From the NCBI GenBank assembly GCA_947479455.1, contig CANJZE010000008.1, forward strand, positions 66,798 through 130,797: a stretch of DNA of 64,000 nucleotides, in the 5' to 3' direction. The number at the start of each line of letters is the position of its first letter. The first letter of the stretch is position 1. The notes below the pieces were generated by a model. That model did no database searches and had not been told where the DNA came from. It saw nothing but the letters and a program-made list of their open reading frames with translations. The stretch is from Bacteroidota bacterium (lineage in GTDB: Bacteria; Bacteroidota; Bacteroidia; Chitinophagales; LD1). Position numbers and translations under genes: made by a program. This document shows, in pieces, positions 6,045-25,011 of the stretch.

Positions 6045-6056
6045 AGCAATAGAGTT

Positions 6057-9411: not shown

Positions 9412-9514
9412 TAAATGCCAATATAGGAAAGAAGAGGGATTCCCGTAATTTGACTACCAAATTCGTGGCATCTTTATTTGTTACCCTTTATTTTTCATCT
9501 TCTATTTTTACGGT

Positions 9515-11005
9515 ATGAGTTCTAATAATCTTCACATTCTTTCCAAATCCACTTTCGTCCGTGGCTGTATCTGCAAGAAAAGTCTCTGGCTGTCCAAACA
9601 CAGAAGAGATTTAATTCCGCCCACCCCCGCAGGTCAACAATTTATCTTTGACCAAGGCCACGAGGTCGGCAAACTGGCACGGCAGCTATTTCCTGGTGGT
9701 GTTGACGCAAGTTCTGCTACCCCGTTCGATTACCAACCATCTTTAGAACTTACCCAAAAACTTATTGCCGAAGACAGGCATGTAATTTACGAAGCAGCAT
9801 TTCAACATGATGGTGTGTTAGCGGCACTTGATATTTTGGTAAAGAAAGAAGATGGATGGCATGCGTTCGAGGTGAAATCATCCACGAAGGTTGCTGACAT
9901 AAATGTTACTGATGCAGCACTTCAATATTGGGTGATGCAAAATTCCGGTTTGAAATTGCAGGACATCTCAATCATCCACATCAATAACGAGTATGAAAGA
10001 ACCGGTGAAATTGAACCCGAAAAATTATTCAAAACCGAATCAATTCTTTATTTGGTTCTTGCTTTACAAGATGAAATTACGGAGCAAGTAAAAGAATTAA
10101 AGAGGGTTGCTATGGATAAAAGCTGTCCGGTTGTTCCTAACGGAAAGCAATGCACCACACCTTGGGCTTGTTCTTTCAAAGACCATTGCTGGAACGAATC
10201 GAAGGTGCCGGATGAATCTATTCTTGATTTCGATTTATACAGAAAGGAAGAACGCTTCAAATTGTTTCATTCCGGCATAAAGCAGATTGCAGATGTTCCT
10301 AATTGGGAGCTGTTGAAAGTTCCATACAATTATGTAGTTGAAGCACACCGGAATAAAGGCATTTATGTAGATGACATTCAACTTAAAAAATTCATGGAAG
10401 GCATAACCTATCCAATCTACTTCATGGATTTTGAAACTGTGCGCTTTGCGGTTCCTAAATTTAATAACTCCTATCCATACGAGCAGATACCGAATCAGTA
10501 TTCAATTCATGTTTTAGATAATGAAAATGCGGAACCGGTTCATCTCTCTTATCTGGCTGACCCTGCTAAAGAGTTCAGAATGGATTTTACAGAAACACTT
10601 CTCAAAGATTTAGGCAACAACGGAACTATTCTTGTTTACAATGTCTCCTTCGAGCGTTCAAGATTAAAAATGCTGGCATTTCTGTTTCCGCAATATGAAT
10701 CGCAAATAAACTCTGTAATAGAACGATTGTTAGACTTGGCATTCCCGTTCCAAAAAAAGTTTTTTTACGACCACAAATTTTCCTGCTCATATTCCATAAA
10801 AGATGTATTGCCGGTGCTTGCTCCTGATTTGAGTTACAAAAATCTGACCGTTAACAACGGTGACGATGCCAGCATAATATTTATGAAAATGATGGAAGAG
10901 CCTGATAAAGACTGGTCAGCCGAAAGAAAAAACCTACTCGAATACTGCGGATTGGATACTTGGGCGATGGTTCGGATTTTCCGGTATCTGAATACGATTG
11001 TATGA
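9515..11005 (+). CDS. DUF2779-type protein with an N-terminal Cas4/RecB-like nuclease region
   Basis: The 496-aa product has an N-terminus SKSTFVRGCICKKSLWL, a Cys cluster CPVVPNGKQCTTPWACSFKDHCW and a C-terminal FMDFETV... region, all typical of DUF2779 proteins. Confidence 0.6.
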   Translation: MSSNNLHILSKSTFVRGCICKKSLWLSKHRRDLIPPTPAGQQFIFDQGHEVGKLARQLFPGGVDASSATPFDYQPSLELTQKLIAEDRHVIYEAAFQHDGVLAALDILVKKEDGWHAFEVKSSTKVADINVTDAALQYWVMQNSGLKLQDISIIHINNEYERTGEIEPEKLFKTESILYLVLALQDEITEQVKELKRVAMDKSCPVVPNGKQCTTPWACSFKDHCWNESKVPDESILDFDLYRKEERFKLFHSGIKQIADVPNWELLKVPYNYVVEAHRNKGIYVDDIQLKKFMEGITYPIYFMDFETVRFAVPKFNNSYPYEQIPNQYSIHVLDNENAEPVHLSYLADPAKEFRMDFTETLLKDLGNNGTILVYNVSFERSRLKMLAFLFPQYESQINSVIERLLDLAFPFQKKFFYDHKFSCSYSIKDVLPVLAPDLSYKNLTVNNGDDASIIFMKMMEEPDKDWSAERKNLLEYCGLDTWAMVRIFRYLNTIV

Positions 11006-11032
11006 TGTTACAAGAATTGTAAGTAGGAGAGC

Positions 11033-11878
11033 TTAACCCGTTGCAATATTCCAAGAGATGCAGTTGAGTATTCCACCTTTTTTAGCAAGCTCATTGCTTT
11101 TTACAGTTACTATCCTTTGCCCATGGAATAATTCTTCAAATTTCTTTGTCGCCTTCTCATCTTCAGGGAAGTCAAAAACTGGAACGAAGACAACATTCTG
11201 CATTTCTAAATAGTTGATGTAAATTCTACAAGCACTGGTGTAAGGTTTGTTATCGTAAGGATTGTAAGGCAATTCTTCCCAATCAAGTCCCGCGTTATAC
11301 AATGCCGTTCGGAAAGCAACCTGAAATTCATCCTTATTTTTTGCATACCGGTTGATTAAAACCGTTTTTTCATCGAGGAATCTAACCATGCCATCAGCGT
11401 GACCGGTAAAGTCGTGCCGGTCTGATGGTATAACAATTACTCTGTCTACTTCAAGGAGTTTCTCCAATTCTCTTATGAGTTTTCTTTCATCCGGTTTAGG
11501 ATTCTCTTTAAAAATCCGGTCAGTTACTATTGCCTTGTTTTTGGACTTTACAACGTTCCCTCCATCCAGAATAATGTCGCTCTTAATTTCGGTTCTTATG
11601 CCTCTGGCTTTGCAGATTGATTCTGTGTCCGAGATAGACTTCACTCCGCTTTTGGTATTTCGCAAGTAGCCCGGATTGTAAGTAAAGGGGACAAATTTTT
11701 CTTTGTCAACTTGAATTGGCATATAGTCCCTCGACCAAACATCTTTCGTTCCTGGCAGCCACTTATTTTCAATACCATTTTCTTTCAAAGCTTTATCGAA
11801 CTCGTAAAAGAATGCTGGATATTTTTTAGGTAAGCAGTCAGCGAGATATAGAATATTGGTTTCTGAATCTACTACCAT
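11033..11878 (-). CDS. Peptidyl-arginine/agmatine deiminase-fold (PAD_porph family) enzyme
   Basis: Motifs DVWSRDYMP, LDGGNVV, FTGHADGMVRF, YINYLEMQNVVFVPVF and GGILNCISW (catalytic Cys) match the guanidino-modifying enzyme pattern. The preferred start is the ATG at 11878, which overlaps the upstream stop as TAATG. Confidence 0.7.
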   Translation of the reverse strand: MVVDSETNILYLADCLPKKYPAFFYEFDKALKENGIENKWLPGTKDVWSRDYMPIQVDKEKFVPFTYNPGYLRNTKSGVKSISDTESICKARGIRTEIKSDIILDGGNVVKSKNKAIVTDRIFKENPKPDERKLIRELEKLLEVDRVIVIPSDRHDFTGHADGMVRFLDEKTVLINRYAKNKDEFQVAFRTALYNAGLDWEELPYNPYDNKPYTSACRIYINYLEMQNVVFVPVFDFPEDEKATKKFEELFHGQRIVTVKSNELAKKGGILNCISWNIATG

Positions 11879-12534
11879 TATTGTGCTACCAATTTTGCGT
11901 CTAAGTGATTGAAGTAGCAATAATACTTTTCAAAATATTTCATCTCCTCTTCCGACTCAGGATAAAAAATATTGTGTCGTTTGCCTTTATAGATTGGTGC
12001 GTTCAATGAGTTTGAATGAACTTCAAGTCGGAGTGGTGAAGCCGAATCGAAAACGAACTTTCCCTTTCCAGTGGCCAGCCGAGCCACTTCTTCTATGCCA
12101 ATATTGTCTATGATTTCTTTTACAATATTGCTTATGCCTTCAGTGCATTTATTCGTTCCGATATTTTCAATCTGACGTATCAGAATTCCACCATAGTTCA
12201 TGTGTCTCTTATTCCCAAAAGTAATATCGAGTCCTCTATGCTTATTCTTCAAATAAGCAGCCGGTGTTTTAAAACGGTGAAAATACCACTCACCAAATTC
12301 AGCCTGCCGTGGTTCAGTCTTATATTGGTTACTGTGAGCATAAGGGTCGTGGTGGCGATAATGAACGCTGTCGAAGTAAAATTCTATCTCCTTTATCAGG
12401 AAGGTGGATTCACCGGCAACTAACTTAGTGTTACGCAGTAGTTCTGTCGCAATCTTATCGAATGCACTTTCCAGTTCAAGAAGCGGCAGAGTATCAACTG
12501 AAATGTCTGTAAGGATTTTTTCTAAATCTGTCAT
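11878..12534 (-). CDS. Hypothetical protein with motifs reminiscent of the AAG/Mpg 3-methyladenine DNA glycosylase fold
   Basis: The order IATELLRNTKLV...IKEIEFY...HHDPYAHSN...GEWYFHRF...GGILIRQIE parallels the Mpg pattern LLGK.LV...IVETEAY...DPASHA...YVY...AVLIRALE. This is an eye alignment only. Confidence 0.35.
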   Translation of the reverse strand: MTDLEKILTDISVDTLPLLELESAFDKIATELLRNTKLVAGESTFLIKEIEFYFDSVHYRHHDPYAHSNQYKTEPRQAEFGEWYFHRFKTPAAYLKNKHRGLDITFGNKRHMNYGGILIRQIENIGTNKCTEGISNIVKEIIDNIGIEEVARLATGKGKFVFDSASPLRLEVHSNSLNAPIYKGKRHNIFYPESEEEMKYFEKYYCYFNHLDAKLVAQ

Positions 12535-12564
12535 AATGAATTTTGGATTAAGTGTCCGTGAAAG

Positions 12565-14070
12565 CTATTTTGAAGTAAGGGCTGCAATTATTTTATCATA
12601 GCCTCCTATCATGTTATTCTCCGTAATATAGGGTTGTCTTGCATTCTTTGTATAGAGCAAGTTCGGATAGCCCTGTAATTCGGTTACTGCGTTGAGCCAA
12701 AGGTTCTTGCTGCGGGTAATAATAATTACAGCATCGCGCTTAATGGCTTCACGCACGAGGTGGAAGTTATATTCCTGTGTAGGGAGATATTTTTTACCAG
12801 CCCCAAATTCATTCTCGATAAATTTATGAGGAACGGATTTAAACTTCTTTGAAACGTATGGGAAGAACTGAATCTTACTTAGCTTTTTGCCAAGGACTTC
12901 TTTGCCAAAATATTCTTCTAATATCCGTAGCCTCTTTTTCCAATAATCCGAATATTCAGCGTATTCTTCATCCAAACAATACAAAGGACATTCGAACCGG
13001 TTACTGTGAGTTAGCTCTTTCAGAAACCAATCCCGATATTTTCCATAGAAGTCCTTCTCTTCTTCATTCTCGTCAAACCCCGGATTCAAAGTGAGCAAAA
13101 CAACTTTTGAATTGAATACATCTCCCATAAACGCAGCCGGAAAAATTTCCGTATGAATCTTAAACAATTCTGAATGTTCGTTCTTTAAAGAATTATTGAA
13201 CCGGTCAATTATTTTGGACTCGGCAGGATGAATAAAATAATCGCCTTGGTTGTAAGAGTTTAATTCAAACCAGGGATTTGTCATGGGAGATTTATTAAGG
13301 TAAATGATTTCGGTCAAATCTATTGCAAAGTTCATCAAGTGCTGTTTCCTTTTTTCAGAGGAATAAGCCAGTTCTTGCAAGTGCATATCCGGCACGTGCT
13401 TTTTGCAAAGTCTGAATTGTAACAGACTCATGCCCATTTCAGGAAGCCAATCTATATTCGCATCGCCTATTCGCTCAAAAATAGATTGGAGAAAACTAAA
13501 CAGATTGATATAGGTGTGAAGTAAAACATTCTCAGCTTTCTCTCTTCGAATCAATGAATTTTCGATTCGTTTATCATTAAAATCAATTCCGAAGAATCTT
13601 GATTGTATTTTGTATTTATCTTCACTTTTGCCGTTGTGTCTGTAATCAATATAGCTGGCAACTAAATTTTTAATGCTATAGGTCGGAATGACTTTGCTTT
13701 TAAGCAGAGAAATAAGTGTTTGAACCAATTCGTTTTCTGTTTTTCCATCGAACTGTTTAGAGATTTTGTAATTGACGATGTCCTCTGAAATCAGAAATGA
13801 CAACAAGTGAATCAAAGAACCTTTCAGATTATTTAGTATATGCTTATACCCTTCGGAACAATAATCTTGTTTGTATTCATTTATCAATTGTGGTAAGTCA
13901 TATCCGTGATAAACAATTTTTGCAAGAGTTCCTATTTTTTCATCCGGTGTGGTTGTCTTAAATTCATGGGAAAGGCTATCCAGAAGGGAACGCCAGTTGT
14001 CAACCTTTATAGTTTGCTCAACTACTTCTGTCAATCGCTCGGAGGGAGCTTCTAATTGTAATGTATTCAT
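12565..14070 (-). CDS. Hypothetical 501-aa protein; the C-terminal ~200 aa has a UDG-superfamily-like LNPG motif
   Basis: It is the first gene of the 14070->11033 operon. KVVLLTLNPGF resembles motif A of the MUG/SMUG families (GINPG/GMNPG), and later beta-strand-like segments are AVIIITRS and LLYTKNARQP. The N-terminal ~300 aa are helical with no recognised motif. Confidence 0.3.
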   Translation of the reverse strand: MNTLQLEAPSERLTEVVEQTIKVDNWRSLLDSLSHEFKTTTPDEKIGTLAKIVYHGYDLPQLINEYKQDYCSEGYKHILNNLKGSLIHLLSFLISEDIVNYKISKQFDGKTENELVQTLISLLKSKVIPTYSIKNLVASYIDYRHNGKSEDKYKIQSRFFGIDFNDKRIENSLIRREKAENVLLHTYINLFSFLQSIFERIGDANIDWLPEMGMSLLQFRLCKKHVPDMHLQELAYSSEKRKQHLMNFAIDLTEIIYLNKSPMTNPWFELNSYNQGDYFIHPAESKIIDRFNNSLKNEHSELFKIHTEIFPAAFMGDVFNSKVVLLTLNPGFDENEEEKDFYGKYRDWFLKELTHSNRFECPLYCLDEEYAEYSDYWKKRLRILEEYFGKEVLGKKLSKIQFFPYVSKKFKSVPHKFIENEFGAGKKYLPTQEYNFHLVREAIKRDAVIIITRSKNLWLNAVTELQGYPNLLYTKNARQPYITENNMIGGYDKIIAALTSK

Positions 14071-14142
14071 GACGCGAAAATAACTCCCGATTACGCAATG
14101 TATTTGCGTAGAGAAATGTTTTTCCGTATAGAGTAGTGAAAT

Positions 14143-14775
14143 TCAATTGTTCTTGAGCGTTTTCATGAACTCTTCCCTGCTGATAAATTTCGCTCCCATT
14201 TTTTGAAGGTGCTGCGTGTATACCTGGCAGTCTATCAGTTCAAATTTACCGGAACGGCACAAGGCAATCAAGGCGAGCTTCGAAGTATTCGGCAGTTTAC
14301 TGAACATACTTTCACCGCAGAATACCTTGCCCACTACCACACCATAAAGGCCACCGACAAGCGTCTCTCCTTGCCATACTTCGACAGACTGCGCAATTTT
14401 TTTATTGTGGAGACGGGTATAAGCGTCTTTCATATCATCATGTATCCATGTTCCGCTTTGGCCTTTGCGTCTGATACCTGAGCACCGGGTGATTACTTCG
14501 TCAAAGGCTGTGTTCCATTTAATCTCATATTTCGCGGACTTGATTTGCTGCCGCATACTATGCGATACTTTCACCTCACCCGGCACAATTACAAATCGTT
14601 CATGCGGACTAAACCAAAGGATAGGTTCCTCTTCTGAATACCAAGGAAAGATTCCGTTCTGGTATGCTAACAACAACCGTTCCTCAGATAAGTCACCACC
14701 AATGGCAAGCAAGCCGTCATCATCGGCAAGGGATGGTTTGGGGAAAATAATTTCATCGGTGAGTCGAAAGAGCAT
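14143..14775 (-). CDS. aat: Leucyl/phenylalanyl-tRNA--protein transferase
   Basis: LLAIGGDLSEERLLLAYQNGIFPWY...ILWFSPHERFVI...GGLYGV..G.VFCGESMF is the canonical Aat pattern, in a 210-aa product. Confidence 0.9.
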   Translation of the reverse strand: MLFRLTDEIIFPKPSLADDDGLLAIGGDLSEERLLLAYQNGIFPWYSEEEPILWFSPHERFVIVPGEVKVSHSMRQQIKSAKYEIKWNTAFDEVITRCSGIRRKGQSGTWIHDDMKDAYTRLHNKKIAQSVEVWQGETLVGGLYGVVVGKVFCGESMFSKLPNTSKLALIALCRSGKFELIDCQVYTQHLQKMGAKFISREEFMKTLKNN

Positions 14776-14812
14776 ATCGGAACGAAGATGAGAAATTGAG
14801 ATTAGATAGAAA

Positions 14813-15484
14813 CTATCCCAGCGTCACGCACACTCCGATGTGGTCACTCAGCTTTTTATCCTCATTCCAAACGGATGTCACCGGTTTCAGTGATTTCAAA
14901 AAAGAAACGGAGATGGCGATGTGGTCAATGTTCTCTGGGATATTCTGCGTCAGGTTTTCAACCTTTAACTCATTGAAACAGGAGTTTATCTTTTGCCGAC
15001 CATCCTTTGTATAGTAGTAGTTGTCAGCGAAGGAAATATTGAAGTCACCGGCTACGCAGATGTTTCCTATGCCGCAGATTCGCTCCCAATCGGCAAGCTG
15101 TTCATTGAGGTCGATATTGAAACTCTCTCTTCTATTGCCATGAATCCCGATGACAGTTCCGTATACATTCAAATCACCTATTGGTGTTCTGATACCGATG
15201 CAGATACTCGTGAAGCCATCGTATGTTTTCATATACCGGTTTGCGGGATACTTAGTCCAGATGGTCGTTCGGTTCTCGCCTTTTTTGTAATAAGGTTCGT
15301 CCAAGAGTAGCAGAGAAGCGGTGGCAAACGGATTGTATGCTTCACCTGGATGAATTATTGAACTCGTCTCCGTAAGGATTAAAATATCCGCGTCAACCTC
15401 TTTCAACGCGTCAACTATTTTCGTGTTTCTCGTTTTGGAAGAATCATTCGGTCGCTCTACGTTCCATGTCGCAATTTTCATCAT
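14813..15484 (-). CDS. Endonuclease/exonuclease/phosphatase (EEP) family protein
   Basis: Motifs IATWNVERPN, DADILILTET, VAGDFN and a C-terminal SDHIGV are EEP catalytic motifs. The gene is transcribed divergently from the RT gene. Confidence 0.75.
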   Translation of the reverse strand: MMKIATWNVERPNDSSKTRNTKIVDALKEVDADILILTETSSIIHPGEAYNPFATASLLLLDEPYYKKGENRTTIWTKYPANRYMKTYDGFTSICIGIRTPIGDLNVYGTVIGIHGNRRESFNIDLNEQLADWERICGIGNICVAGDFNISFADNYYYTKDGRQKINSCFNELKVENLTQNIPENIDHIAISVSFLKSLKPVTSVWNEDKKLSDHIGVCVTLG

Positions 15485-15588
15485 TATCTATTTATCACTT
15501 TCGATGGAAAGTAAGAGAACTTATTTCGCTACCGGAAGTTTTTTCGCAGGATACATCCTTCCACTCAATCTTATCTCTAATTTCAGGG

Positions 15589-15736
15589 AACATCTAAGGC
15601 GCGGAACATAGGAGGATAACAGCGTTGCTTGTCTCAGGTAGTTATCCGGTGCATTGAGAACCTGCTTTGAATGATTGCAATCTTTTGAGCAGCGTTGCTG
15701 CAAAATGCTTTTTAGCGGTTACCGGCCTTAGATGTT
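15589..15736 (+). ncRNA. Candidate structured RNA element immediately upstream of and overlapping the RT start
   Basis: A 12-bp perfect inverted repeat, aacatctaaggc (15589-15600) / gccttagatgtt (15725-15736), encloses hairpins ggataac...gttatcc (15614-15647) and gcagc-gtt-gctgc (15689-15701). The 10-mer cagcgttgct occurs twice (15620, 15690). Confidence 0.35.
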
Positions 15737-17510
15737 TTTTATGAGAACATACGCGACCTACTTCACCTACCCCAAAATCTTATTCGCACTCGTGGCGAAA
15801 AGGCTTGCCTTATCTACAAGAAGACACGATGAGATTTTTCTTAACAACATCAGCGTTCGCAGAACTCAAAAATTTGAACCATCGGATTCCGAGAAAATAC
15901 TTTCGGAAATATTCCCACCCCGAAATATTTGGGTCAGGGCGTCAAAGAAGAAGAGGATGAGCGCCACGGATAACCCTGAAAAAATCAGATTCCAAGAGTT
16001 ATTTACCACGGTGATGAAAGCGAGAGCAGAGGCACGGCAAACAGGTGTTGTTCCAGACTGGCTTAAAAAACTCAATTGCCTAATATCGGAAATCAGGGAA
16101 TCTATGATGGCGCCGGCATCGCTCGCAAAAATTAAACCAGCCGAACAAGCCTACCTTCTGAAAAATAAAAAAACGGCAGAACACCGCGTAATAGCCAGGT
16201 ATTCTCTTACCGACAGCATTATATCAAGCCTGGTGAGCGAATACCTAACGGACCATACAGATGCCGCACTGAACCGACCTTACTTCTCAGATAGCAGCTA
16301 CGCTTTCAGAAGCGCCAGACAGTCAAAGAAAGGCGGGCGGGTATTTAGTTATCATTCAGCCACCAGTGACATCGAGGAATACAGACGGATGAATATCGAC
16401 AAGGGAATCTACGTGGCTGAGGTTGACTTGGAGAAATTCTTTGACACTATTAACCACAGCGTCCTTTTGCATAGTCTCGAAAAAATGGTTGAACATTTCA
16501 GGTCGTCAGGGAAACCGCTGGACTATCGGGCGATTGAGATTGCCAGAAACTACCTCGGCTCTTTTAGCTTTAATCTGGATGCCTTGCCGAACGAAATTAC
16601 TGCCGAACGTGAGTTTAAATGGCCGGCTGCTAAACTGCAATCGTTAGGAGTGAATATTTATGAAGAGAAAGTTGGTGTTGCCCAAGGCGGTGCATTGTCA
16701 TGCTTTTTCGCCAACCTGATAATGCACGAGCTCGACAGCGTATTTCAAACGGGAGATTGCGACTTGAAATACCTCAGATACTGTGACGATTTTATCATCT
16801 TCCACACGAATCGCGACATGTGTCAACGGTATATTGACTTGGCGCGCAGGAAAATCCGGGAGCTGAAACTTATAGCTCACTCACCGGAGGACTACAATTT
16901 AGATGACTACAAAAAAAGAATACCGAAAAAGGGCGGCAGCAGGGATGTGAACGAATTCTGGAATTCTACGAAATCGAAAAACCCGTATAAATGGGGACAC
17001 TACGACACGGAGAACAGAATGAATGTGCCCTATGTTTCTTTTGTGGGTTATCAGCGTAGATATGATGGACTGCTCCGTGTCAGAAAGAAATCTTTAAAGA
17101 AAGAATACCAGAAGCAAAAGAATTTGGTGGACGTAGTGTTAGTGAGGATTGATTTGACCCTAAGTTCGAAAGTTAAACTCACCCGTAAGCAAATAATTTT
17201 TAGAACGGAGCAAAAGCTGATAGCGATGTCGGTTGGTAAGAAAAATGTCTTCAATGCAGGCAAGACGCTCGGATTCTGTTGGTGCAACGGATTCAAAGAG
17301 ATGAATTCGGGAGTGAAGAAATCCAATGCCCAGTTAAAATATTTAGACAGGTCACGCGAGAGACAACTGGGCCGGTTGAGAAATAAAATGAAGAGGCTGC
17401 CGCACAGAAAATCAAAGGGGCAAAAAGAGAAGAGTGTCATGCCTCTTCATAGTCCATTGACCAGCTACTTTACTTATTTCAATAAAACGGAAAAAGGACT
17501 CTCAGATTAA
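15732..17510 (+). CDS. Reverse transcriptase (stand-alone; group II-like/UG-DRT-like, class unresolved)
   Basis: RT motifs appear in order: RVIARYSLTDSIISSLV (1), YAFRS (2a), YVAEVDLEKFFDTINH (3/A), GVAQGGALSCFFANLIMHELD (4/B), YLRYCDDFIIF (5/C, YxDD), LKLIAH (6) and VSFVGYQ (7). The C-terminus is basic. The start codon is uncertain (ATG 15732 lies inside a 12-bp stem; the next ATG is at 15741). Confidence 0.9.
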   Translation: MFFMRTYATYFTYPKILFALVAKRLALSTRRHDEIFLNNISVRRTQKFEPSDSEKILSEIFPPRNIWVRASKKKRMSATDNPEKIRFQELFTTVMKARAEARQTGVVPDWLKKLNCLISEIRESMMAPASLAKIKPAEQAYLLKNKKTAEHRVIARYSLTDSIISSLVSEYLTDHTDAALNRPYFSDSSYAFRSARQSKKGGRVFSYHSATSDIEEYRRMNIDKGIYVAEVDLEKFFDTINHSVLLHSLEKMVEHFRSSGKPLDYRAIEIARNYLGSFSFNLDALPNEITAEREFKWPAAKLQSLGVNIYEEKVGVAQGGALSCFFANLIMHELDSVFQTGDCDLKYLRYCDDFIIFHTNRDMCQRYIDLARRKIRELKLIAHSPEDYNLDDYKKRIPKKGGSRDVNEFWNSTKSKNPYKWGHYDTENRMNVPYVSFVGYQRRYDGLLRVRKKSLKKEYQKQKNLVDVVLVRIDLTLSSKVKLTRKQIIFRTEQKLIAMSVGKKNVFNAGKTLGFCWCNGFKEMNSGVKKSNAQLKYLDRSRERQLGRLRNKMKRLPHRKSKGQKEKSVMPLHSPLTSYFTYFNKTEKGLSD

Positions 17511-18120
17511 GAGAGCCTTTCCCAAATTAGACCTGTCATGAACATCATTTATAGAGCAACGGAAGAGAAGTGTTTCATGTAAAGCTCCTAAGGATTACTT
17601 ACTCGCCCACACGCCTTTCCAACTGGGCGGACTAATGCAGGTGGGTAAATCGAATTGCCGTCAGCGCGTTGTTACAATTTTTGTAAGTGAGTTCATCTTC
17701 GGAATTTTCGTGAACCGTTGTCGGACGGTCAGCGCATGATTATTAAAGGCTTCGCCTGTGAAGTTCTTTACCGTCTCTACAAGAGTTAAATACTTTCATA
17801 ATTCTCCTTATACAGTGTTTAATCTTCCTTTGGAGCGAATAAGATGTGCAAGGGGGTTTGAAGTGGCTATGAAGTCGCGTTAGTGTCTTTACTGTCCGTT
17901 AAGACCTATAAAGTCCGTTAAGCGTATAAAGTGGTTTAAGATGTGTTAGTGTCTTTTCCTGTCTTAAAACCTTTAATGAATACAAACCCGTTTGAATGTC
18001 GTAAATATTTTATGCTCTGTCCAGCAGATTGTTTCGCTTTTTGGAAAAAATATTTTCGGTCGCATTAGGACGCTCCTGGTGAGCTCTGGCCGATTTATTA
18101 AGAGAATACCAGTATAAATC
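17511..18120 (+). other. ORF-free ~0.6 kb region downstream of the RT with hairpins and short direct repeats (candidate ncRNA or template region)
   Basis: The track shows no ORF of 60 aa or more on either strand in an otherwise tightly packed locus. Exact repeats are gttagtgtcttt (17879, 17945) and gtccgttaag (17894, 17913). Units tataaagtccgttaag and tataaagtggtttaag start at 17907 and 17925. Confidence 0.3.
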
Positions 18121-18148
18121 AAAACGGACGCCCAGGAGCGTCCGTTTT
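18121..18148. terminator. Bidirectional Rho-independent-type terminator hairpin
   Basis: Stem aaaacggacgc (18121-18131), loop ccagga, stem gcgtccgtttt (18138-18148): an 11-bp stem with A/T runs on both sides. It lies between the RT-downstream region (+) and the stop of the 201-aa gene (-). Confidence 0.6.
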
Positions 18149-18178
18149 GCGAATGGAAAGCGTTTAAGTCAGCCGGTG

Positions 18179-18784
18179 CTACTTGATTTTGTAACCGAGC
18201 TTCTTAGCTGCCTGTAAAAATGGGCGGATATTGTCAGCCGTCCACTGATTGCAAACTGCAATTGTTTTATCCTTCAGCTTGATAAGATGTTCCGGTTTAA
18301 AAAAATATCTGTCACGAGCACCTGAGAGTGAACGGGCAGAATCCTCGTCCATGAACGGAGCGAACCTTTTCAGCAACTCGTCAGGAAATGCTTCCTTGAG
18401 TAGCTTGTAGGTTATCTTTCCTTTTGAAGCGGCAACGTGGTCGGAAATTATCTGTCTTACCAGCGGCCCTTTCTTATACTCCGCACCACCATATTGAAAA
18501 GTTGAATTATCCCGGCCTTTCGATTTTGGTTCCGTCTGCCCACCTGCCTCTTCTAATTCTTCCGTTACCGGTTGTTCAGCTTCCGGTGCCTCGACAAGTG
18601 AGTAGGTTGCTTCCTTCCCTTTACCTTCCTGAGCTAAAAGACCTTCACCGGTCATTTTTTTCAAGGCGTTGACTAAAATAATTCCTTTTACTCCTGTTGC
18701 TTCGCCAATGGCTTTTGCATTGGAAGCTGGGTTATTGCGAAGAAACTCCGCAATTTTTTCCTGTGCTGTTTGTTTGTTTTTCAT
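18179..18784 (-). CDS. Putative winged-helix DNA-binding protein with a conserved-looking C-terminal domain
   Basis: The N-terminus IAEFLRNNPASNAKAIGEATGVKGIILVNALKKMTGEGLL is wHTH-like. An acidic linker follows. The C-terminus RYFFKPEHLIKLKDKTIAVCNQWTADNIRPFLQAAKKLGYKI resembles a domain often attached to restriction/modification proteins; no family name is assigned. Confidence 0.45.
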   Translation of the reverse strand: MKNKQTAQEKIAEFLRNNPASNAKAIGEATGVKGIILVNALKKMTGEGLLAQEGKGKEATYSLVEAPEAEQPVTEELEEAGGQTEPKSKGRDNSTFQYGGAEYKKGPLVRQIISDHVAASKGKITYKLLKEAFPDELLKRFAPFMDEDSARSLSGARDRYFFKPEHLIKLKDKTIAVCNQWTADNIRPFLQAAKKLGYKIK

Positions 18785-18899
18785 TGCTTATAAATTTTAG
18801 ATTAAAAAATATAAGCCGAGCATAGGAGCATCGGTGGAAAGGGAAAAGGAAACGATGGAAAAGTTTCCAGACGCTTGCGATTTTTAGCGAATGGACTTG

Positions 18900-20219
18900 T
18901 TATTGATATAATTCAATCAATGCAGATAATCCTCCTTCGAAACCTTGTCCCACCCCTTCTACAACCCAATTGCCATTATTACGGGAAATAGATGCGACAA
19001 GCACAGAGTCTATTTTATCAAAAGACTTCGTTAGATGGCATTCATGCAGTATCATGTTATCATCTGTGTTTCGAACTTTAACAGAGGCGTTCTGAGTTAA
19101 ACCAAAATGATACTGATGGCTTTCCGCTTCATTTATAGTAACCGCGATGTATAGAAATTCGACTCTTTCGTCTACCTGAGATAAGTTTATCCTTAAAGAT
19201 TCTTGATTGAGGTCGTTGCTGTTTTTCTCACCCGAGTGCTTCGCTGCGCTATCAGGACTTTTAAGGTTATTGAAAAAAACCAGAAATTCAGATGCTGGGA
19301 GTTTCCCATCTTCACCCAACATAAAAACGGACAAATCACAGTCAGTTTCTTTGTCTTTGGTTATTGCCTTCTCCCACGTGAGTTCTACTAAAATATTCTG
19401 AAGGACTACCTTTTTCTTTGATATTGAAATTGGACTCTTTTTTATTGAGATACTTTCTTTATTGCTTGGCACATGGGCTGACCTATTCATATTCTCCAGC
19501 AATTCTTGGTGCTCTTTATGTTCGGCTTTTTTGGTTTTAAACTCATCTATCTCATCATCTGTTCGCACTAATTCCTCCAATTGTTCCAATAATTCTTGTT
19601 CTGCCTTAAATGCGGCATTCATCCTTGTAAGGTCATCCTTTTCCTGAACTATTCCCTTCATCTGCTCCGCATATTCTTGCTTGATTTTAAGTATCGCATT
19701 CAATCTTTTCTTCTCTTTCTCCACCTGCGTTTGCATAGCTAATTTACTTCTCAATAAATTAGCTTCATCTGTTTCTATATTTTTCTTCAGCGCATCTTCT
19801 TTTCGAGCATCTTCCATAATTTCGTTCCACCTTTTATTCTCTTCCTTAAGCTCTTCTGCGATGGTCTTGCGGTGTATTGGCTCCTCTTCTACCTCCTCTT
19901 CGGGTTCAGAATAAACACTTTTATAAGGTTTGGACTCTTCTTCACCTCCCTCAATCAGTCTCTTTATTTCCTTTACTTCTGATTTAGTAAACCCATGTGC
20001 TTTGACGTATCCAATTCCCGTGGTATAAAATGTAATAGTTGAATAACCAACTAAAGGTGTATCCACTGAAACCTCGGAAATTTTATCAAATCCAATTTCC
20101 TTATCCTGATTGCTAAACAGTCCAGGTATTCTCACTGTAATTTTATTACCGCCTACGATAATTTTACAAGGGAACACTCCATTTCCATCAGAAACTCTTG
20201 AAGCAGTAAATGTTTTCAT
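18900..20219 (-). CDS. PH-like N-terminal domain / coiled coil / C-terminal TerD-family domain fusion protein
   Basis: The C-terminal ~170 aa (VELTWEK...DCDLSVFMLGEDGK...EFLVFFNNLKS...INLSQVDERVEFLYIAVTI...W.VEGVGQGFEGGL) match TerD/CABP1 family signatures. The middle is a Glu/Lys-rich coiled coil. The N-terminal ~90 aa form a small beta-rich domain. Confidence 0.75.
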   Translation of the reverse strand: MKTFTASRVSDGNGVFPCKIIVGGNKITVRIPGLFSNQDKEIGFDKISEVSVDTPLVGYSTITFYTTGIGYVKAHGFTKSEVKEIKRLIEGGEEESKPYKSVYSEPEEEVEEEPIHRKTIAEELKEENKRWNEIMEDARKEDALKKNIETDEANLLRSKLAMQTQVEKEKKRLNAILKIKQEYAEQMKGIVQEKDDLTRMNAAFKAEQELLEQLEELVRTDDEIDEFKTKKAEHKEHQELLENMNRSAHVPSNKESISIKKSPISISKKKVVLQNILVELTWEKAITKDKETDCDLSVFMLGEDGKLPASEFLVFFNNLKSPDSAAKHSGEKNSNDLNQESLRINLSQVDERVEFLYIAVTINEAESHQYHFGLTQNASVKVRNTDDNMILHECHLTKSFDKIDSVLVASISRNNGNWVVEGVGQGFEGGLSALIELYQ

Positions 20220-20364
20220 TGATTTTTTTGTTTCGCATGAAATTGATTTTGTTTTCTAACTCCATTGTGTTCTTATTGTCCATTCAAACCGTTCATTTCA
20301 TTCACTTCATTCTTTAAGTTCATTTTACTTCCCGCTCGTTCCTGACAATAGCTTTGCTCAAGCT

Positions 20365-20934
20365 ATGCTGTCCAAAGTCATTAAAGAAATGGTGGAAGAA
20401 AAATTTGGTCAGGCTGTCAGATACCCCAAAGATTGTGAGGCACTGGCGGCACGGATTTCTGATGCCTGTAAACAGCAAATCAGTGCCTCAACTATTAAAC
20501 GGCTTTATGGTTTTGTGAAAGGAATTGAACAACCAAGACTTTACACGCTCGATGTTATCTCCAACTACCTCGGTCACTCATCATGGGAGAATCTATTGAT
20601 GTCTTTGAACAAGCAGAACCGACCAAGCAGGGCAACGATTGAGCACCTACTGCCGGCTCAACTCAAAAAGGGTTCGGTCTTAGAAATTGGTTACGAACCG
20701 AACAGGATGATTACTATCAGATACGAGGGTAAGAATTGCTTTAATATCATTCATTCGACAGAAAAGAAACTATTGCAGAATGATGTGATAACAATTCAGA
20801 GTGCTGATTTGCATTATCCACTATTGGTAAGCGAAATAAAAAGAGGCGAAAAGAATATCGGTCAATGCACTCTCGGTAGCATTAGTGGAGTAACTTTCAT
20901 CAAGAAAATACAAACAGCGAAAACTAAGAAGTAA
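20365..20934 (+). CDS. Hypothetical protein (189 aa)
   Basis: The ORF sits in a divergent promoter arrangement with the TerD-fusion gene. The N-terminal ISASTIKRLYGFVKG segment could be HTH-like. No firm motif was seen. Confidence 0.4.
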   Translation: MLSKVIKEMVEEKFGQAVRYPKDCEALAARISDACKQQISASTIKRLYGFVKGIEQPRLYTLDVISNYLGHSSWENLLMSLNKQNRPSRATIEHLLPAQLKKGSVLEIGYEPNRMITIRYEGKNCFNIIHSTEKKLLQNDVITIQSADLHYPLLVSEIKRGEKNIGQCTLGSISGVTFIKKIQTAKTKK

Positions 20935-21529
20935 TTTCCTTCGTTGCCTCATCTTCGCAACCTTCACAATGAGCAGTTCCATTAGCTAAAGCCGCTTCAT
21001 ATTCACGAACAGTAGTATCATACCAGAGGTCGAATCTATGCTCTATAAACCGTTCCATGTTATTTGCTTTTCCGAAATCTGTGTTGAACTCATCGGTGCA
21101 AAAAGGACTACCGGTGATTAAAGCAGATTTCAAATTGTCTATTACAGATTGAGAAATATTGTTGCGAAGAGATTCAAGAAAACTTTCTGCGCTTTCTTCT
21201 TTCCTAAAAGTGAATTCAAACGCATCACTGAAATGCTGTCTTATATGAAAATGCTTGTTCCCGATTTTTACCTCACAGGGATTACCAAGTTTCAAATCCG
21301 CTAAACGGTTTGCCAGTTCACTGAACAGAATATTTTGTTTACAAAAACTGAGCGTGTTATCTGTCTGCTCAAAATTTTCATCATGAAAGGCATAATCTTC
21401 ATCTACAAAAAATACAAGGAGATAAATGTTGACTGCTTCCTCTTTGAAAACTTGTTTCACCGTTTCCCAAGTGATGCCTTCGATGAACAGCTTAATTGTG
21501 TTCTCTTCTTTTTTTATCGCTATTTCCAT
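20924..21529 (-). CDS. Hypothetical protein, single-copy member of a local paralogous family
   Basis: MEIAIKKEENTIKLFIEGITWETVKQVFKEEAV aligns with the N-terminus of the adjacent 523-aa protein (MELALCQEKEDTKLFIQGIKWTEIINALKEEEV). The shared C-terminal motif is C..E....DF.KA.NM. Confidence 0.5.
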   Translation of the reverse strand: MEIAIKKEENTIKLFIEGITWETVKQVFKEEAVNIYLLVFFVDEDYAFHDENFEQTDNTLSFCKQNILFSELANRLADLKLGNPCEVKIGNKHFHIRQHFSDAFEFTFRKEESAESFLESLRNNISQSVIDNLKSALITGSPFCTDEFNTDFGKANNMERFIEHRFDLWYDTTVREYEAALANGTAHCEGCEDEATKEITS

Positions 21530-21639
21530 AGATGTATTTATACGAAGTTAGCTTTCAGAATCGAGGGAGAACCGATATGAACGAAATGAATTTGATAAAT
21601 ATGCTTACCGTGAAGTTTTCTTGACCAACTTACTTCTTG

Positions 21640-23211
21640 CTAAAGCTGTTCCTTGACCATAGACTGGTGAAATCTTTTTTTGTAATACATAAGCAAAGTT
21701 TCCATATCCTCTTTAATTTCCGGTTGAGAAAAATAAGATATGAGACATTTAATTACCGTTTCACCATCGAAACCGTAAATTTTGCCATCACCATCGAAAC
21801 AGTTCATTCGGTCTGCACGAAGCCTGTAATAGACCAGAAAATATGGATAGGGTCTATTCCAAGGCCTGCCATAACTACTTCCATATATTTTCTTCTCATT
21901 GTCAGTAAGTTTAACCGGTTCTTCCTCATTAACTACCTCGTCACCCGGTTGAGCATGCTCGTTTTGGGTTGTAATTTTTAGAGCCTTTGCTAACTCTTGC
22001 TCCTCATTGATAATCCATACACGTTCCATCAACCCAATCATACTTTCAGTTCTATACATATTTCTGGCCTTTTCAAAATCGCTTCCGCATCCTTCCGTGC
22101 AGTAATCCTTTCCTTTTTGCACGGCTTTTTTCATTGCGTCAACTACCTCCTTTGTAACAAAAGGTTCAAAAGCATTCAGAAATTTCAGCATTACATCCTC
22201 TTGCCAAAAAGTAAGAGTATACATTGGCGGATACCAACTCCAGCGACTATCCAGCTCAAAAGAAGCGTTACCTATATTTAAGAGTTGCGGTTCCCTAAAA
22301 TTTTCCGGTAGATTAAGAGATGTAATTTTCTCCATCAAGTGTCCAAAATGAATTTTTTGCGGATTAAACTCATACCAAAGCTCCCCCATTTTGAAATCAT
22401 CACTTTCGATAGTGTAGAGGTCGTTAGTATCAATACCAAGAGAAGAAACAAAAACTGTCTCATTCTTAAAAATATCAGATAAATCCTTAAGGGACAATCC
22501 TTCTGTGAGTAACTTAAAGTTATTATGACGACTGGTTACCACAAGTTCTATAGGATAGTCTTTACTTGGTTCCTGTTTAGGGTTGATGCGAAGATTTTGA
22601 AAGGTATCAATTTGACCCACCTTGCCGGCCTCTTCAAAAACTGCTTTAAATCCATCGGTAGCATAGGGCTTTTCTTCCTTTGCAGCCAATATAAAGTCTG
22701 TAGAGGTTTGCCCCGACAATATGAGATTTGCATTTTCGATAAAACTGATGAGTTTATCCTTGCTATGAAATGTAAGAAGGTAGGATTCAAGACTCGCATA
22801 GCATTCCAGATAAAAAGCATCATTGCCCAATCGCAATTCATACGGCATTTCCCGTTCAACATTAGTCCTGAAAAATCTTTCCCAAATTTCATCTAAAGAC
22901 AAGCCATGCTCGACAAGTTCTGGAAATCCTGCCTTTAATTTTTCCAGTTTAATAGTTTCGACTTCCTTCAAAGGATTAAGTGAAACTATCATATTGATAA
23001 TTTCACCGAAAAGAGTGTGGTGATTAGAAATACTAAAATAGCTTATGACATGTTTGTCATCAGGATTGTTAGTGAAATCGTTGTCATAACCTAACTCGTA
23101 GTAGTCAACTTTGACTTCCTCCTCTTTAAGGGCATTGATTATTTCAGTCCACTTTATCCCTTGGATAAATAATTTCGTATCCTCTTTTTCTTGGCATAAT
23201 GCTAATTCCAT
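21640..23211 (-). CDS. Hypothetical protein with two tandem copies of the domain found in the 201-aa neighbour plus a ~120-aa C-terminal extension
   Basis: Repeat 1 spans about aa 1-205 and repeat 2 about aa 215-400 (YPIELVVTSRHNNFKLLTEGLSLKDL...CTEGCGSDFEKARNM). No known family was recognised. Confidence 0.5.
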   Translation of the reverse strand: MELALCQEKEDTKLFIQGIKWTEIINALKEEEVKVDYYELGYDNDFTNNPDDKHVISYFSISNHHTLFGEIINMIVSLNPLKEVETIKLEKLKAGFPELVEHGLSLDEIWERFFRTNVEREMPYELRLGNDAFYLECYASLESYLLTFHSKDKLISFIENANLILSGQTSTDFILAAKEEKPYATDGFKAVFEEAGKVGQIDTFQNLRINPKQEPSKDYPIELVVTSRHNNFKLLTEGLSLKDLSDIFKNETVFVSSLGIDTNDLYTIESDDFKMGELWYEFNPQKIHFGHLMEKITSLNLPENFREPQLLNIGNASFELDSRWSWYPPMYTLTFWQEDVMLKFLNAFEPFVTKEVVDAMKKAVQKGKDYCTEGCGSDFEKARNMYRTESMIGLMERVWIINEEQELAKALKITTQNEHAQPGDEVVNEEEPVKLTDNEKKIYGSSYGRPWNRPYPYFLVYYRLRADRMNCFDGDGKIYGFDGETVIKCLISYFSQPEIKEDMETLLMYYKKRFHQSMVKEQL

Positions 23212-23286
23212 AAAAATATTTTTTCGAAGATAAAAGATTTGTGATTTTAATTATCGGATGTCAACAAACAACGATATTCATTACGC

Positions 23287-23490
23287 TTATTTATTCAACT
23301 TTTTTAGAAATAATTTGAATACCACCCCAATTGCTTCCGCATCAGAATTGAAGTAGTGTTCCGGCTTCACTATGTTATGCGGGTCGAGGGCTTTCAACTT
23401 CTTGATGACCGGTTCAAATTCCGGTCTTACAACTTTCTCTAATTGGCTGATATAATCAGGATACCGGTTGATGAATTCTATTGCGTCCAT
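23287..23490 (-). CDS. Small hypothetical protein (67 aa)
   Basis: The ORF lies between the AAA+ gene and the 523-aa gene on the same strand. No motif was seen. Confidence 0.3.
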   Translation of the reverse strand: MDAIEFINRYPDYISQLEKVVRPEFEPVIKKLKALDPHNIVKPEHYFNSDAEAIGVVFKLFLKKLNK

Positions 23491-23572
23491 ATTATTTCGG
23501 ATTGTTGACGCAAATTAGACTTAGGTGTGGCAGGGAAATTATTCTGAGCGATAAACAACTTTTTCGAATCAG

Positions 23573-24604
23573 CTATTTTTTCAGTTTAACCTGGATTTGA
23601 AAATTCCTTCTGTGTGATTGTGTAACTTTTTTATCCGTCCAATTTTTCATCGTTCCTTGCCCCAACTTCAATTTATTCTCTGCAAGTGAGAAAGTGCCAT
23701 ATTCTTTCTTACCCCAACTTCTGACCTGAATTTTAAACTGGCCAATCAAATCATCCATAGTAAATCCAGGTCGAATCTGAAATACACTTAAGTCATTTCC
23801 TTCGGCACTGTGCAACTGGGTCTTACTTATAAAGTCTTCTTTTATGGTTTCTACAATCTTCTTTTCAGTTTCATCCAGTATTTTCTTCTTCTCACCGTAA
23901 AGCAAAATCCGATAGTTAAAATACATACACGCCAGTTTGTCAAGGTCGCGAAAACCGCCATCAAACTTTTCAGCGTAGTCTTCAAGAAATTTTTCGAGTG
24001 TGGCATTTTTCGGAGGAACAGCAAAGTGTTCGAAGCCCTCTGTGTTCTCAAAATTCATCTTTTGCCATGTAGAGTGGAAGTCCTTTACAACGCTTCCGTT
24101 CTCCTTTTTATAGGAGGGGAACTCTACCACCAATTGACTTATTCTATCCCAGAACAATCCATGCAATTGATTTTCATCCTCACGGAGAACTTCAATATCC
24201 TTTGAAGACGTAAAGACTAAGCGAACATTAAATTTCTTCTCAACTCCGAACTTACCGTCTGTAGTTGATAGCGCTATGAATAACAAGTCTTGTTGCTCCT
24301 CGGTCAAACGTTCAACATCTTCAATCACCAAAGTTTGGTTTTGGTGTTTCTTGAGAAGGGTATCAATTTCAGCTACTGATGATGGTATTTTTACCGCTGA
24401 GATAAATTCTAATTTCTCCACGCATAATTTCTTTCGATTAGCCGTTTTGATTTCTCTAAAAGCATTTTCGATGGCGAAATGTTTCCCCGTGCCTCGTGCG
24501 CCAACTACAATCAAGCAGAACTTGCCGGGGTTTACAAGAAATACTTTTAGCCGCTTATATGCCTGCTCCCTTAGTGGACTGCCCACAGTTACAATCTGAT
24601 TCAT
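23573..24604 (-). CDS. AAA+ ATPase related to the sigma-54 interaction domain (bEBP/RtcR-like core) without a recognisable sensor domain
   Basis: LIVVGARGTGKHFAIENAF (Walker A, cf. GESGTGKE), TLVIEDVERLTEEQQDLLF (Walker B, cf. LFLDEI..L....Q..LL), VRLVFTSS and GGFRDLDKLA (cf. GNVRELEN). No GAFTGA loop was seen. Confidence 0.55.
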   Translation of the reverse strand: MNQIVTVGSPLREQAYKRLKVFLVNPGKFCLIVVGARGTGKHFAIENAFREIKTANRKKLCVEKLEFISAVKIPSSVAEIDTLLKKHQNQTLVIEDVERLTEEQQDLLFIALSTTDGKFGVEKKFNVRLVFTSSKDIEVLREDENQLHGLFWDRISQLVVEFPSYKKENGSVVKDFHSTWQKMNFENTEGFEHFAVPPKNATLEKFLEDYAEKFDGGFRDLDKLACMYFNYRILLYGEKKKILDETEKKIVETIKEDFISKTQLHSAEGNDLSVFQIRPGFTMDDLIGQFKIQVRSWGKKEYGTFSLAENKLKLGQGTMKNWTDKKVTQSHRRNFQIQVKLKK

Positions 24605-24708
24605 TTAGTTTGTCAAATATTTACCAATAATAGGGAGAAATATTTATCTACCCAAAAAGCGCTTTGTTTATTACTCCATCATTGCCCCGTCAACAAAACA
24701 ATCATAAA

Positions 24709-25011
24709 ATGAAAAACTTAAACTTCTCAACCAGCCCTCACGGAGCCTGTAAGGTGACCGAGGCAAAACCAGATGAAATTTCTGTTACACGCGTTCTAAA
24801 GTCATCAAAGAAAAAACCCAAGGCTTCAAATACCATCATCATCGCGAGGTATGAATGGCTTAAAAGAAACAAGTTGTCTTTGCCAAGCAACATCGAACTC
24901 CCAAATCTTTGCGTGACCATCAAAGAGGGTAAACTAATAAGAGCCTTCTACTCAAATGTTCTTTCGCATATCATTAAGAAACAGAAATACTACATCCAAA
25001 TACTGAACTGA
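24709..25011 (+). CDS. Small basic ORF (~100 aa) translationally coupled to the GT-radical SAM gene
   Basis: The ATG at 24709 (MKNLNFSTSPHGACKV...) is preferred over the track's TTG at 24664. The stop overlaps the next start as TGATG at 25009-25013. No known motif was seen. Confidence 0.35.
   Translation: MKNLNFSTSPHGACKVTEAKPDEISVTRVLKSSKKKPKASNTIIIARYEWLKRNKLSLPSNIELPNLCVTIKEGKLIRAFYSNVLSHIIKKQKYYIQILN

Follow-up and report, generated by a model that had tools for sequence, protein, structure and literature searches.

A Structured RNA Precedes the Reverse Transcriptase Gene of a UG39 Locus Without the PrimPol-Like Partner

Introduction

Which kind of reverse transcriptase (RT) is encoded by a stand-alone gene set between two stretches of apparently non-coding DNA, and does either stretch supply the enzyme with an RNA? 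The question is raised by a locus of a Bacteroidota bacterium (assembly GCA_947479455.1, contig CANJZE010000008.1), for which 64,000 nucleotides (nt) of the forward strand, positions 66,798 to 130,797 of the contig, were analyzed; this whole stretch is referred to below as the window. An original prediction, made from the letters alone, had proposed an RT of the UG/DRT (defense-associated reverse transcriptase) type, of unresolved class, with one or more non-coding RNA (ncRNA) partners encoded in the flanks. The locus was found to be a two-part UG39 system, in which a structured ncRNA (~15590-15740) is followed in the same direction by the RT gene (15741-17510). It belongs to a known RT family, of which it is a variant without the partner gene, and the upstream RNA is family-wide; the 3' flank and the neighboring genes listed in the original prediction are incidental.

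UG39 is a Class 2 UG/Abi group that was split from UG28 (DRT9) by Mestre et al. 2022 (PMC9226505); it had earlier been named 'UG28b' in myRT, and the name 'DRT11' refers to UG5, not to UG39. The group was defined partly via protein cluster 64, which has a VirE domain at its N-terminus and a PriCT-2 domain at its C-terminus and is PrimPol-like; this tie is a predicted association in Mestre et al. and no requirement (PMC9226505). No ncRNA is described for UG39 by these authors (PMC9226505). A later paper on UG39 was not found in the literature searched, in which the upstream RNA reported here also appears to be undescribed.

Results

The Protein Is an RT of the UG39 Group

The open reading frame (ORF) of 592 amino acids (aa) with an intact YCDD box, on which the original prediction was built, was recovered mechanically at 15732..17510 (+). 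RVT_1 (residues 145-381) was the sole domain found in the Pfam scan, and no additional known domain is fused to the RT, the feature by which Class 2 is recognized. The R-Y-C-D-D box is intact: C351, D352, and D353 were invariant in 26 homologues, Y/F350 was conserved, and the homologue alignment showed the protein to be conserved from end to end. When the protein was compared with the PADLOC models, RT_UG39 was matched with E = 1.4e-136 and 454.6 bits, residues 7-584 being aligned to model positions 2-538 of 541. The runner-up, Drt9 (E = 7.3e-25), covered residues 134-370 only, and Drt2 (E = 7e-18) and RT_UG17 (E = 2e-15) were matched through the RT core only. NCBIfam gave sub-threshold RT-core matches only (Drt2, 57 bits vs. 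a cutoff of 390), and a profile search of the PDB sequences likewise matched RT cores only. The AlphaFold2 model of the RT reached a predicted local distance difference test (pLDDT) score of 85 and a predicted template modeling (pTM) score of 0.85. Its nearest solved folds were the DRT9 RT-ncRNA complexes 9vma, 9nlv, and 9ioa (E ~1e-11 to 1e-12, nearly full length), followed by group II intron RTs, G2L4, and DRT2. The protein is virtually certain to be a UG39 RT, a placement for which assignment by hidden Markov model serves as the proxy for phylogeny. The UG/DRT-type reading of the original prediction is borne out by this full-length match, and the class that it had left open can be named.

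A collection of species-representative genomes yielded at least 412 relatives of the RT, mostly in Bacteroidota, and the window RT shares 27-37% identity with most family members in this collection. Eighty of these relatives (RT identity 26-49%) were used, and eleven metagenomic loci (nine of them distinct; RT identity 50-71%) were added, which gave 91 related loci altogether (numbered L001 and onward). Homologue N-termini in the alignment read 'MR..YATYF' (general form, 'M(K/R)xFxxYF'). Because the homologues begin in this way, the ATG at 15741, giving a protein of 589 aa, is most likely the true start; the mechanical start, ATG 15732, sits within the 3' strand of the RNA closing helix described below. 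At the other end of the protein, Y579 was invariant in homologue alignment A1, and an S-Y-[YFH] motif was present in 72 of 85 RTs, at a median of 11 residues from the C-terminus.

Several deposited or related genes depart from this N-terminus. The public calls P0001 (identical RT, 468 aa) and, for two relatives, P0010 and P0011 start ~90-125 codons late; since the omitted N-terminus is conserved at the protein level in the family, these starts are read from the alignment as start-codon miscalls. The N-terminus of the UG39 RT is apparently disrupted in L001 (6000-6250), where the frame is open from about residue 60, and in L035, where it is open from about residue 150. Gene decay to a pseudogene or a faulty assembly may account for both cases; the RNA upstream can still be detected in L001.

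A Conserved Structured RNA Lies Directly Upstream of the RT Gene

Both flanks had been described in the original prediction as devoid of ORFs of 60 aa or more. This holds for the 668 nt that follow the RT stop (17511-18178), in which no ORF of at least 50 aa was present on either strand. The 5' flank contains two mechanical ORFs, of 62 aa (15423..15611, +, starting with GTG) and of 60 aa (15521..15703, -, starting with TTG). As neither is conserved, the 5' flank is regarded as non-coding: among relatives its longest open frame switches strand and frame and drops to 35-40 codons.

By blastn, positions 15526-15731 of the window were 76-82% identical to, and collinear with, the region adjoining the RT start in close relatives. 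The RNA fold of the window had z = -3.9, and none of 200 shuffled sequences was equally stable. Covariation was analyzed in clade A, the closest clade, on a MAFFT alignment of eight sequences that had not been fitted to any structure. RNAalifold returned 30 pairs, nine of them compensatory, with 95.4% of the cells paired. The nine pairs with double changes compare with 4.1 +/- 1.3 in shuffled alignments, of which 0/500 reached nine, and with 0-3 in slid-partner controls. A covariance model (R1) built from this clade found the non-seed loci L089 and L001, in both cases directly 5' of the RT; it did not reach the relatives of 26-37% identity. The element is a closed multi-helix domain (Table 1), and that it is a conserved structured RNA is very likely. 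Within it, the UUUU loop of P5 is replaced by UAUUC in L084, L087, and L088. Two copies of CAGCGTTGCT (15621 and 15690) take part in pairing in the single-sequence minimum free energy fold, but this pairing is not conserved in relatives and was rejected.

In the spacer between the RNA and the divergent EEP gene, alignment A2 showed two blocks that are kept in close relatives, CTGGAAGTTTTTT (~15533-15547) and the -7-like TAATTTCA (15578-15585). The spacer (15485-15589) probably holds the promoter for a joint RNA-RT transcript.

The Closed Architecture Recurs Throughout the Family

The upstream regions were found to group by RT subclade. The family median of the upstream gap is 180 nt; relatives of at least 50% identity all reach 239 nt or more, L001 with its disrupted N-terminus excepted. 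In subclade C the layout is UUAAGGCGUAGGC ... GC-UACGCCUUA followed by a U-run and AUG, and RNAalifold gave 49 pairs, 14 of them compensatory, which 0/500 shuffles reached; at the position corresponding to the -7-like block of the window, immediately 5' of P1, this subclade has an exact Bacteroidota -7 box (TAtaTTTG). In subclade D, which is canonical and PrimPol-linked, GGGGUUCC ... GGAACCCC precedes a U-tract and AUG, the RNA begins at the stop codon of the partner gene, and 10 of 19 RNAalifold pairs are compensatory. In subclade B, GGAUACAC ... GUGUAUCC was recognized by eye, with covariation, and the helix was also returned by the helix scan; RNAalifold gave no support there, MAFFT having misaligned the helix strands.

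Because a single covariance model failed to span the whole family, a sequence-independent helix test was adopted, in which the final 40 nt ahead of the ATG were compared with every upstream segment and the best helix without gaps was scored. The closing helix had a median score of 12.75 at 88 RT loci, against 8.75 for 331 control genes taken from those loci (Mann-Whitney p = 2.6e-30), and scores of at least 14 were obtained for 37.5% of the RT loci vs. 1.2% of the controls. The 5' strand of the helix lies 147-227 nt before the ATG and the helix ends at a median of 9 nt before it; at least five T within the 8 nt after the helix were present in 48% of loci, vs. a background of 10%. The median length of the element is 172 nt. 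The closed-domain architecture was thus shown to be kept within subclades by compensatory changes, and to be family-wide despite completely different sequences.

Two peculiarities were confined to single subclades. In subclade B (L002, L003, L006-L009, and L013), an invariant tandem, UCGAUUCGAUUC, was seen ~60-75 nt before the RT start; it amounts to ~2.4 copies of a 5-nt unit, is apparently unpaired in the RNA, and is not family-wide. It would suit an alignment-plus-template segment of the kind known from telomerase and DRT10. In subclade C (L012, L016, L017, L018, L022, and L025), the 3' strand of P1 is tandemly duplicated (for example, CTACGCCTACGCCT and TACGCTTACGC), which would let the 5' strand pair in either of two registers.

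The 3' Flank Does Not Belong to the System

The original prediction had placed stems and repeats in both flanks, had allowed for an ncRNA partner in either, and had named covariation as a check and absence of conservation at loci of orthologous RTs as grounds for giving the idea up. Upstream, stems and a cognate structured RNA were upheld, with covariation in four RT subclades (A, C, and D, and by eye in B). Downstream, the repeats and a hairpin exist; RNA structure and covariation were not detected, and the flank is not conserved with the RT. Across the family, downstream gaps vary from 0 to 900 nt, with a median of 143 nt and no more than 39 nt in a quarter of the loci.

The proximal part (17511-17849) had no blastn match in the 91 related loci except for a short palindrome, and the fold of 17511-17860 was shuffle-like (z = -0.31). 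No remnant of a decayed neighbor gene was detected in the flank by tblastn: DUF3846 and eight other neighbor proteins of related loci were tried, all with E > 0.1, and the idea of a decayed gene was rejected. The palindrome, GTTACAA-N3-TTGTAAC, occurs four times in the window (11007-11023, 17671-17687, 27764-27780, and 33620-33636) vs. 0.43 expected, the copy in the flank reading GTTACAA-N3-TTGTAAG. Two copies come immediately after unrelated genes, whose stop codons lie at 11005 and 33615. Related loci also contain the motif, namely L081 (1862), L082 (9386), and L088 (2893), and so does the stretch that precedes the RNA in L081 and L082. The motif has the look of a gene-end or terminator-like element that is genus-wide.

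The block that follows (17850-18060) contains two copies of GTTAGTGTCTTT and three TATAAAGTCCGTTAAG-/GTCCGTTAAG-like units at a spacing of 18-19 nt. Homologues of 62-75% identity follow the RT stop at a distance of 420 nt in L088 (3142-3226), 1450 nt in L084 (9217-9375 and 8073-8135), and 2000 nt in L001 (9768-9861), and in L090 (3025-3231) one lies upstream of the RNA; they always have the orientation of the RT and sit at very different positions. The block is missing in L081, L082, and L085, and all that L091 has of it is a 29-nt stretch matching the 3' edge. No structure signal was obtained for the block on either strand (z = -0.64, +; z = -1.45, -), and it may act at the DNA level, as an operator, an iteron, or a recombination site. 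The remainder of the flank is occupied by a perfect hairpin (18120-18149, CAAAACGGACGC with GCGTCCGTTTTG), which is nested in an outer inverted repeat (18068-18079 with 18132-18143). The convergent gene 18179-18784 has this terminator at its 3' end, and read-through from the RT gene meets no other strong stop signal. Lacking conservation with the RT as well as any signal of structure or covariation, the 3' flank is excluded from the RT system.

TABLE 1. Features of the UG39 locus in coordinates of the window
Feature	Position	Strand	Evidence or remark
Spacer from divergent EEP gene to RNA	15485..15589	+	Conserved blocks in alignment A2
UG39-associated structured non-coding RNA, closed multi-helix domain	15590..15740	+	Conservation, fold z, covariation, helix test
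P1 closing helix	15590-15600 ACAUCUAAGGC with 15725-15735 GCCUUAGAUGU	+	Long-range pairing
P1 extension	15602-15604 with 15722-15724	+	
P2	15614-15620 with 15641-15647	+	
P2b	15626-15630 with 15636-15640	+	
Variable middle of RNA	15648-15688	+	
P4, small hairpin	15689-15693 with 15697-15701	+	
P5, small hairpin	15706-15709 with 15714-15717	+	
U-tract	15735-15740	+	Followed by RT AUG
UG39-class (Class 2 UG/Abi) reverse transcriptase	15741..17510	+	589 aa from homologue-consistent start; RT_UG39 profile, end-to-end alignment, AlphaFold2 model
Catalytic Y-C-D-D box	16779..16790	+	Residues 350-353 of the 592-aa ORF
Ser578-Tyr579 in C-terminal tail, candidate priming residue(s)	17463..17468	+	Y579 invariant; role inferred from DRT9 and DRT10
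Proximal 3' flank, not part of the system	17511..17849	.	Unique, without ORF, homologue, or structure signal
Repeat-bearing conserved intergenic block, not positionally linked to RT	17850..18060	+	Repeats, blastn homologues
Terminator region	18068..18149	.	Perfect hairpin and outer inverted repeat

Partner Gene and Genomic Neighborhood

A PrimPol-like gene (BT4734-like_N/VirE_N + PriCT_2) lies directly upstream of the RT gene in 51 of the 91 loci, either co-directional or divergent. No such gene was found by tblastn anywhere in the 64 kb of the window or among the loci of subclades A and B, nor in Pfam scans of 26 ORFs of the window. The original prediction had called the arrangement unlike any that could be named; the group has a partner defined in the literature, the VirE_N/PriCT-2 PrimPol-like gene, and it is this gene that the window lacks. 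No SLATT partner, a criterion for DRT10, was present among the neighbors scanned.

In subclade A, a winged helix-turn-helix (wHTH) protein recurs near the RT in 6/11 loci, DUF3846 in 5/11, and EEP in 4/11, at variable distance and in variable orientation, which fits a variable island that these loci share beside DUF2779/Cas4 and aat. The EEP, wHTH, and TerD-fusion genes that the original prediction had listed as a gene set recur in this closest clade only and at variable positions, and they were rejected as partners. The wHTH protein of the window (18179-18784, -) has 201 aa, an N-terminal wHTH of the MarR/ArsR-like kind, and a weak PADLOC PDC-S57 match; its homologues lie within 3.5 kb of the RT in 6/11 clade-A loci, on either side and in either orientation. 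Two adjacent paralogues (20924-21529, - and 21640-23211, -) have no Pfam domain; common to both is an N-terminal module that is repeated, '...KLFI.GI.W....'. A 540-aa gene beside the RT in L090 (1245-2867) is homologous to them (tblastn E = 2e-48), and the family is an uncharacterized one of island genes.

The defense genes of the window encode GmrSD, SIR2, an AAA_23/SMC-like ATPase, a ResIII/SNF2 helicase, a DUF2779/Cas4-like nuclease, TerD, and AbiEii. Stretches of defense-island character, including a tyrosine integrase, were noted at 1013-8294, 9515-11005, 29879-30649, and 32344-33615; no tRNA was found anywhere in the window. The gene at 25011-27308 (+) encodes a 765-aa fusion of a GT4 glycosyltransferase and a radical SAM/SPASM domain, an unusual architecture, whose match to GT4-conflict is sub-threshold (25.7 bits vs. 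a cutoff of 26). It is followed by genes for a histidine phosphatase and a WG-repeat protein.

Discussion

A Template and Scaffold Role for the Upstream RNA

That the upstream RNA serves the RT as both template and scaffold, in a defense role, is fairly probable by analogy. The mechanism is inferred because the characterized Class 2 relatives DRT9, DRT2, and DRT10 work in this way. In the proposed course of events, RNA and RT would be transcribed together from a promoter in the 15485-15589 spacer, and the long-range helix brings the 5' end of the RNA beside the U-tract that abuts the RT start codon. Helix and U-tract would probably act as a leaky terminator, leaving the RNA abundant and the RT scarce. 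The RT would bind the upstream RNA as scaffold and template both, and DNA synthesis would be primed from a hydroxyl of the C-terminal Ser578/Tyr579. A short internal segment of the RNA would then be copied over and over into long, repetitive single-stranded DNA, and upon phage infection this DNA would halt the cell or the phage (abortive infection). The lineage of the window would operate without the PrimPol-like partner of most UG39 loci.

Several points weigh against such a role. The defense prediction for UG39 was graded 'inconclusive' by Mestre et al. (PMC9226505), and RNA, cDNA, or phage data on any UG39 system were not found in the literature searched. The promoter and the transcript ends are predicted ones. 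A template segment was sought in the UG39 RNAs and was not found: no k-mer or motif is common to the 34 RNA sequence clusters beyond the shuffle level, and tandem duplications like those of telomerase and DRT10 were not enriched (56/67 loci vs. a null of 57.6). The likeness to DRT9 is distant, at ~15% identity and template modeling (TM) scores of 0.42-0.56. Most UG39 loci carry the PrimPol-like partner, and the form without it might be an incomplete system or one with a different mode of action. Finally, a helix beside the AUG makes the element equally readable as a cis-acting translational or transcriptional leader.

Alternative Explanations

The last of these points bears on the alternative that the 5' element acts purely in cis within the RT mRNA, as a leader of the attenuator or translational-switch kind, and is neither template nor scaffold. 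The layout is terminator-like, with the 3' strand of the helix at a median of 9 nt before the AUG and the U-tract after it, the helix of the window covers an in-frame upstream ATG, and no template motif was found in UG39 RNAs. In all three characterized Class 2 relatives, however, the adjacent ncRNA is template and scaffold (PMC12483538, PMC12632851), DRT9 ncRNAs likewise end in a dispensable U-rich region, and a family-wide multi-helix domain of 140-220 nt, maintained despite complete sequence turnover, exceeds the needs of a simple attenuator. A purely leader function is unlikely on this balance; a leader role and a template and scaffold role are, moreover, compatible. The downstream side invites a different proposal. 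DRT3 has its ncRNA downstream, and the unusual length of the ORF-free 3' region (17511-18178), its internal and inverted repeats, and the occurrence of the 17850-18060 block near the RT and in the same orientation in five clade-A loci could point to a second RNA partner there. The short gaps of the family, a proximal 340 nt with no homologue in 91 loci, the absence of a thermodynamic or covariation signal, the wandering or lost block, and the assignment of what remains to the terminator of the convergent gene have largely refuted this proposal, which is left highly improbable.

That the RT belongs to a mobile or classical retroelement (a group II intron, a retron, or a diversity-generating retroelement), with a ribozyme, msr/msd, or template repeat (TR) in the flanks, is hardly credible and is refuted by the searches made. 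Profile searches do match group II intron RTs via the shared fingers and palm core, yet TIGR04416 reached 84.7 bits vs. a cutoff of 300, no GIIM/maturase or En domain was found by Pfam, and the UG39 model spans the protein end to end. Matches to retron RT models were weak and partial (for example, retron_St85_RT, 38 bits vs. a cutoff of 235). No pair of template and variable repeats (TR/VR) was found, the sole direct repeat of at least 35 nt in 9000-25000 being a 38-nt pair of 71% identity. Rfam gave no match at the gathering score in the whole window and no intron, msr, or other family at E <= 1 in 14000-19500, the one exception being a sub-threshold match of a small nucleolar RNA model inside the aat gene (20.9 bits vs. 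a gathering score of 45). The original prediction, which had seen no group II intron, retron, or diversity-generating retroelement signal, agrees with these searches. In one related locus, L042, a group II intron RT/maturase (RVT_1 + GIIM; 7842-9158, -) was observed convergent to, and ~45 nt after, a canonical UG39 RT; unrelated RT kinds can therefore adjoin. A further possibility, which appears improbable, is that UG39 is not antiviral and serves the replication or maintenance of an integrated element, or DNA repair. Mestre et al. found no conclusive defense enrichment for UG39 (PMC9226505), in 51/91 loci the RT is accompanied by a VirE_N/PriCT-2 gene, of a type characteristic of the replication of mobile elements, and a role in DNA damage responses is reported for some RT/PrimPol fusions (PMC12439943). 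On the other side, the RT stands among recognized defense genes, in a variable island next to DUF2779/Cas4, in the window and in relatives; UG39-like RTs are nearly absent from the sequenced phages and plasmids of the phage and plasmid collections; and all tested Class 2 relatives are defense systems.

With the template and scaffold role preferred, it may tentatively be asked whether UG39 is a distinct type of RT-ncRNA immune system, with a cDNA product unlike those of DRT2, DRT9, and DRT10, which is conceivable and at present doubtful. If this were true, the RT and a ~150-nt closed RNA domain would be a self-sufficient core, and the PrimPol-like gene would be an add-on of other lineages, for example for second-strand synthesis. 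Through the conserved position of helix and U-tract at the start codon, RT expression would depend on RNA folding or on RT binding, in a built-in autoregulatory loop, and templates would be clade-specific (for example, UCGAUUCGAUUC in subclade B), giving different repeat products per lineage. Each Class 2 defense RT studied (DRT2, DRT9, and DRT10) has revealed an unexpected mode of making DNA. The RNA limits, the covariation-backed fold, the candidate priming residues, and a minimal construct (15485-17510) make UG39 directly testable; the 3' flank is removed as a false lead, and the published 'defining' PrimPol partner proves dispensable in whole sublineages.

Comparison with Characterized RT Systems

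With the rest of the UG39 group the window locus shares the full-length profile match, the absence of a fused accessory domain, the occurrence mostly in Bacteroidota, and the closed upstream RNA domain, which is also present in canonical PrimPol-linked loci; it differs in that the PrimPol-like partner is absent from the window and from its whole subclade.

UG39 having been split off from UG28, DRT9 (UG28) is its sister group; the closest solved fold is that of DRT9, and Drt9 ranks second among the PADLOC models. The DRT9 RT uses its upstream ncRNA both as scaffold and as template, and synthesis is primed by tyrosines of the C-terminal tail (Y496/Y498; Tang et al. 2025, PMC12483538). Both systems have a structured ncRNA directly upstream of the RT with a U-rich 3' region (PMC12483538) and conserved tyrosine(s) in the C-terminal tail; the likeness of the RNAs is one of presence and structure, and shared ancestry with the DRT9 ncRNA is not implied. 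In contrast, the Drt9 profile covers only the core of the window RT, at ~15% identity, and the UG39 protein is ~90 residues longer. Sequence conservation is high among DRT9 ncRNAs, which have a universal U-rich template loop, whereas UG39 RNAs have a common architecture and no sequence motif. DRT9 makes a poly-dA product and forms a hexameric assembly.

DRT10 (UG17) and DRT2 (UG2; 9c0i) are likewise Class 2 UG RTs with an adjacent structured ncRNA that is poorly conserved between subgroups. They differ from UG39 in that their models give weak, core-only matches to the window RT and in that tandem duplication in the RNA is no feature of the UG39 family. Both carry out repetitive templated cDNA synthesis; in DRT10 a short template is copied repeatedly, with priming from a C-terminal Ser or Tyr, and its authors expect ncRNA templates in other Class 2 groups (PMC12632851).

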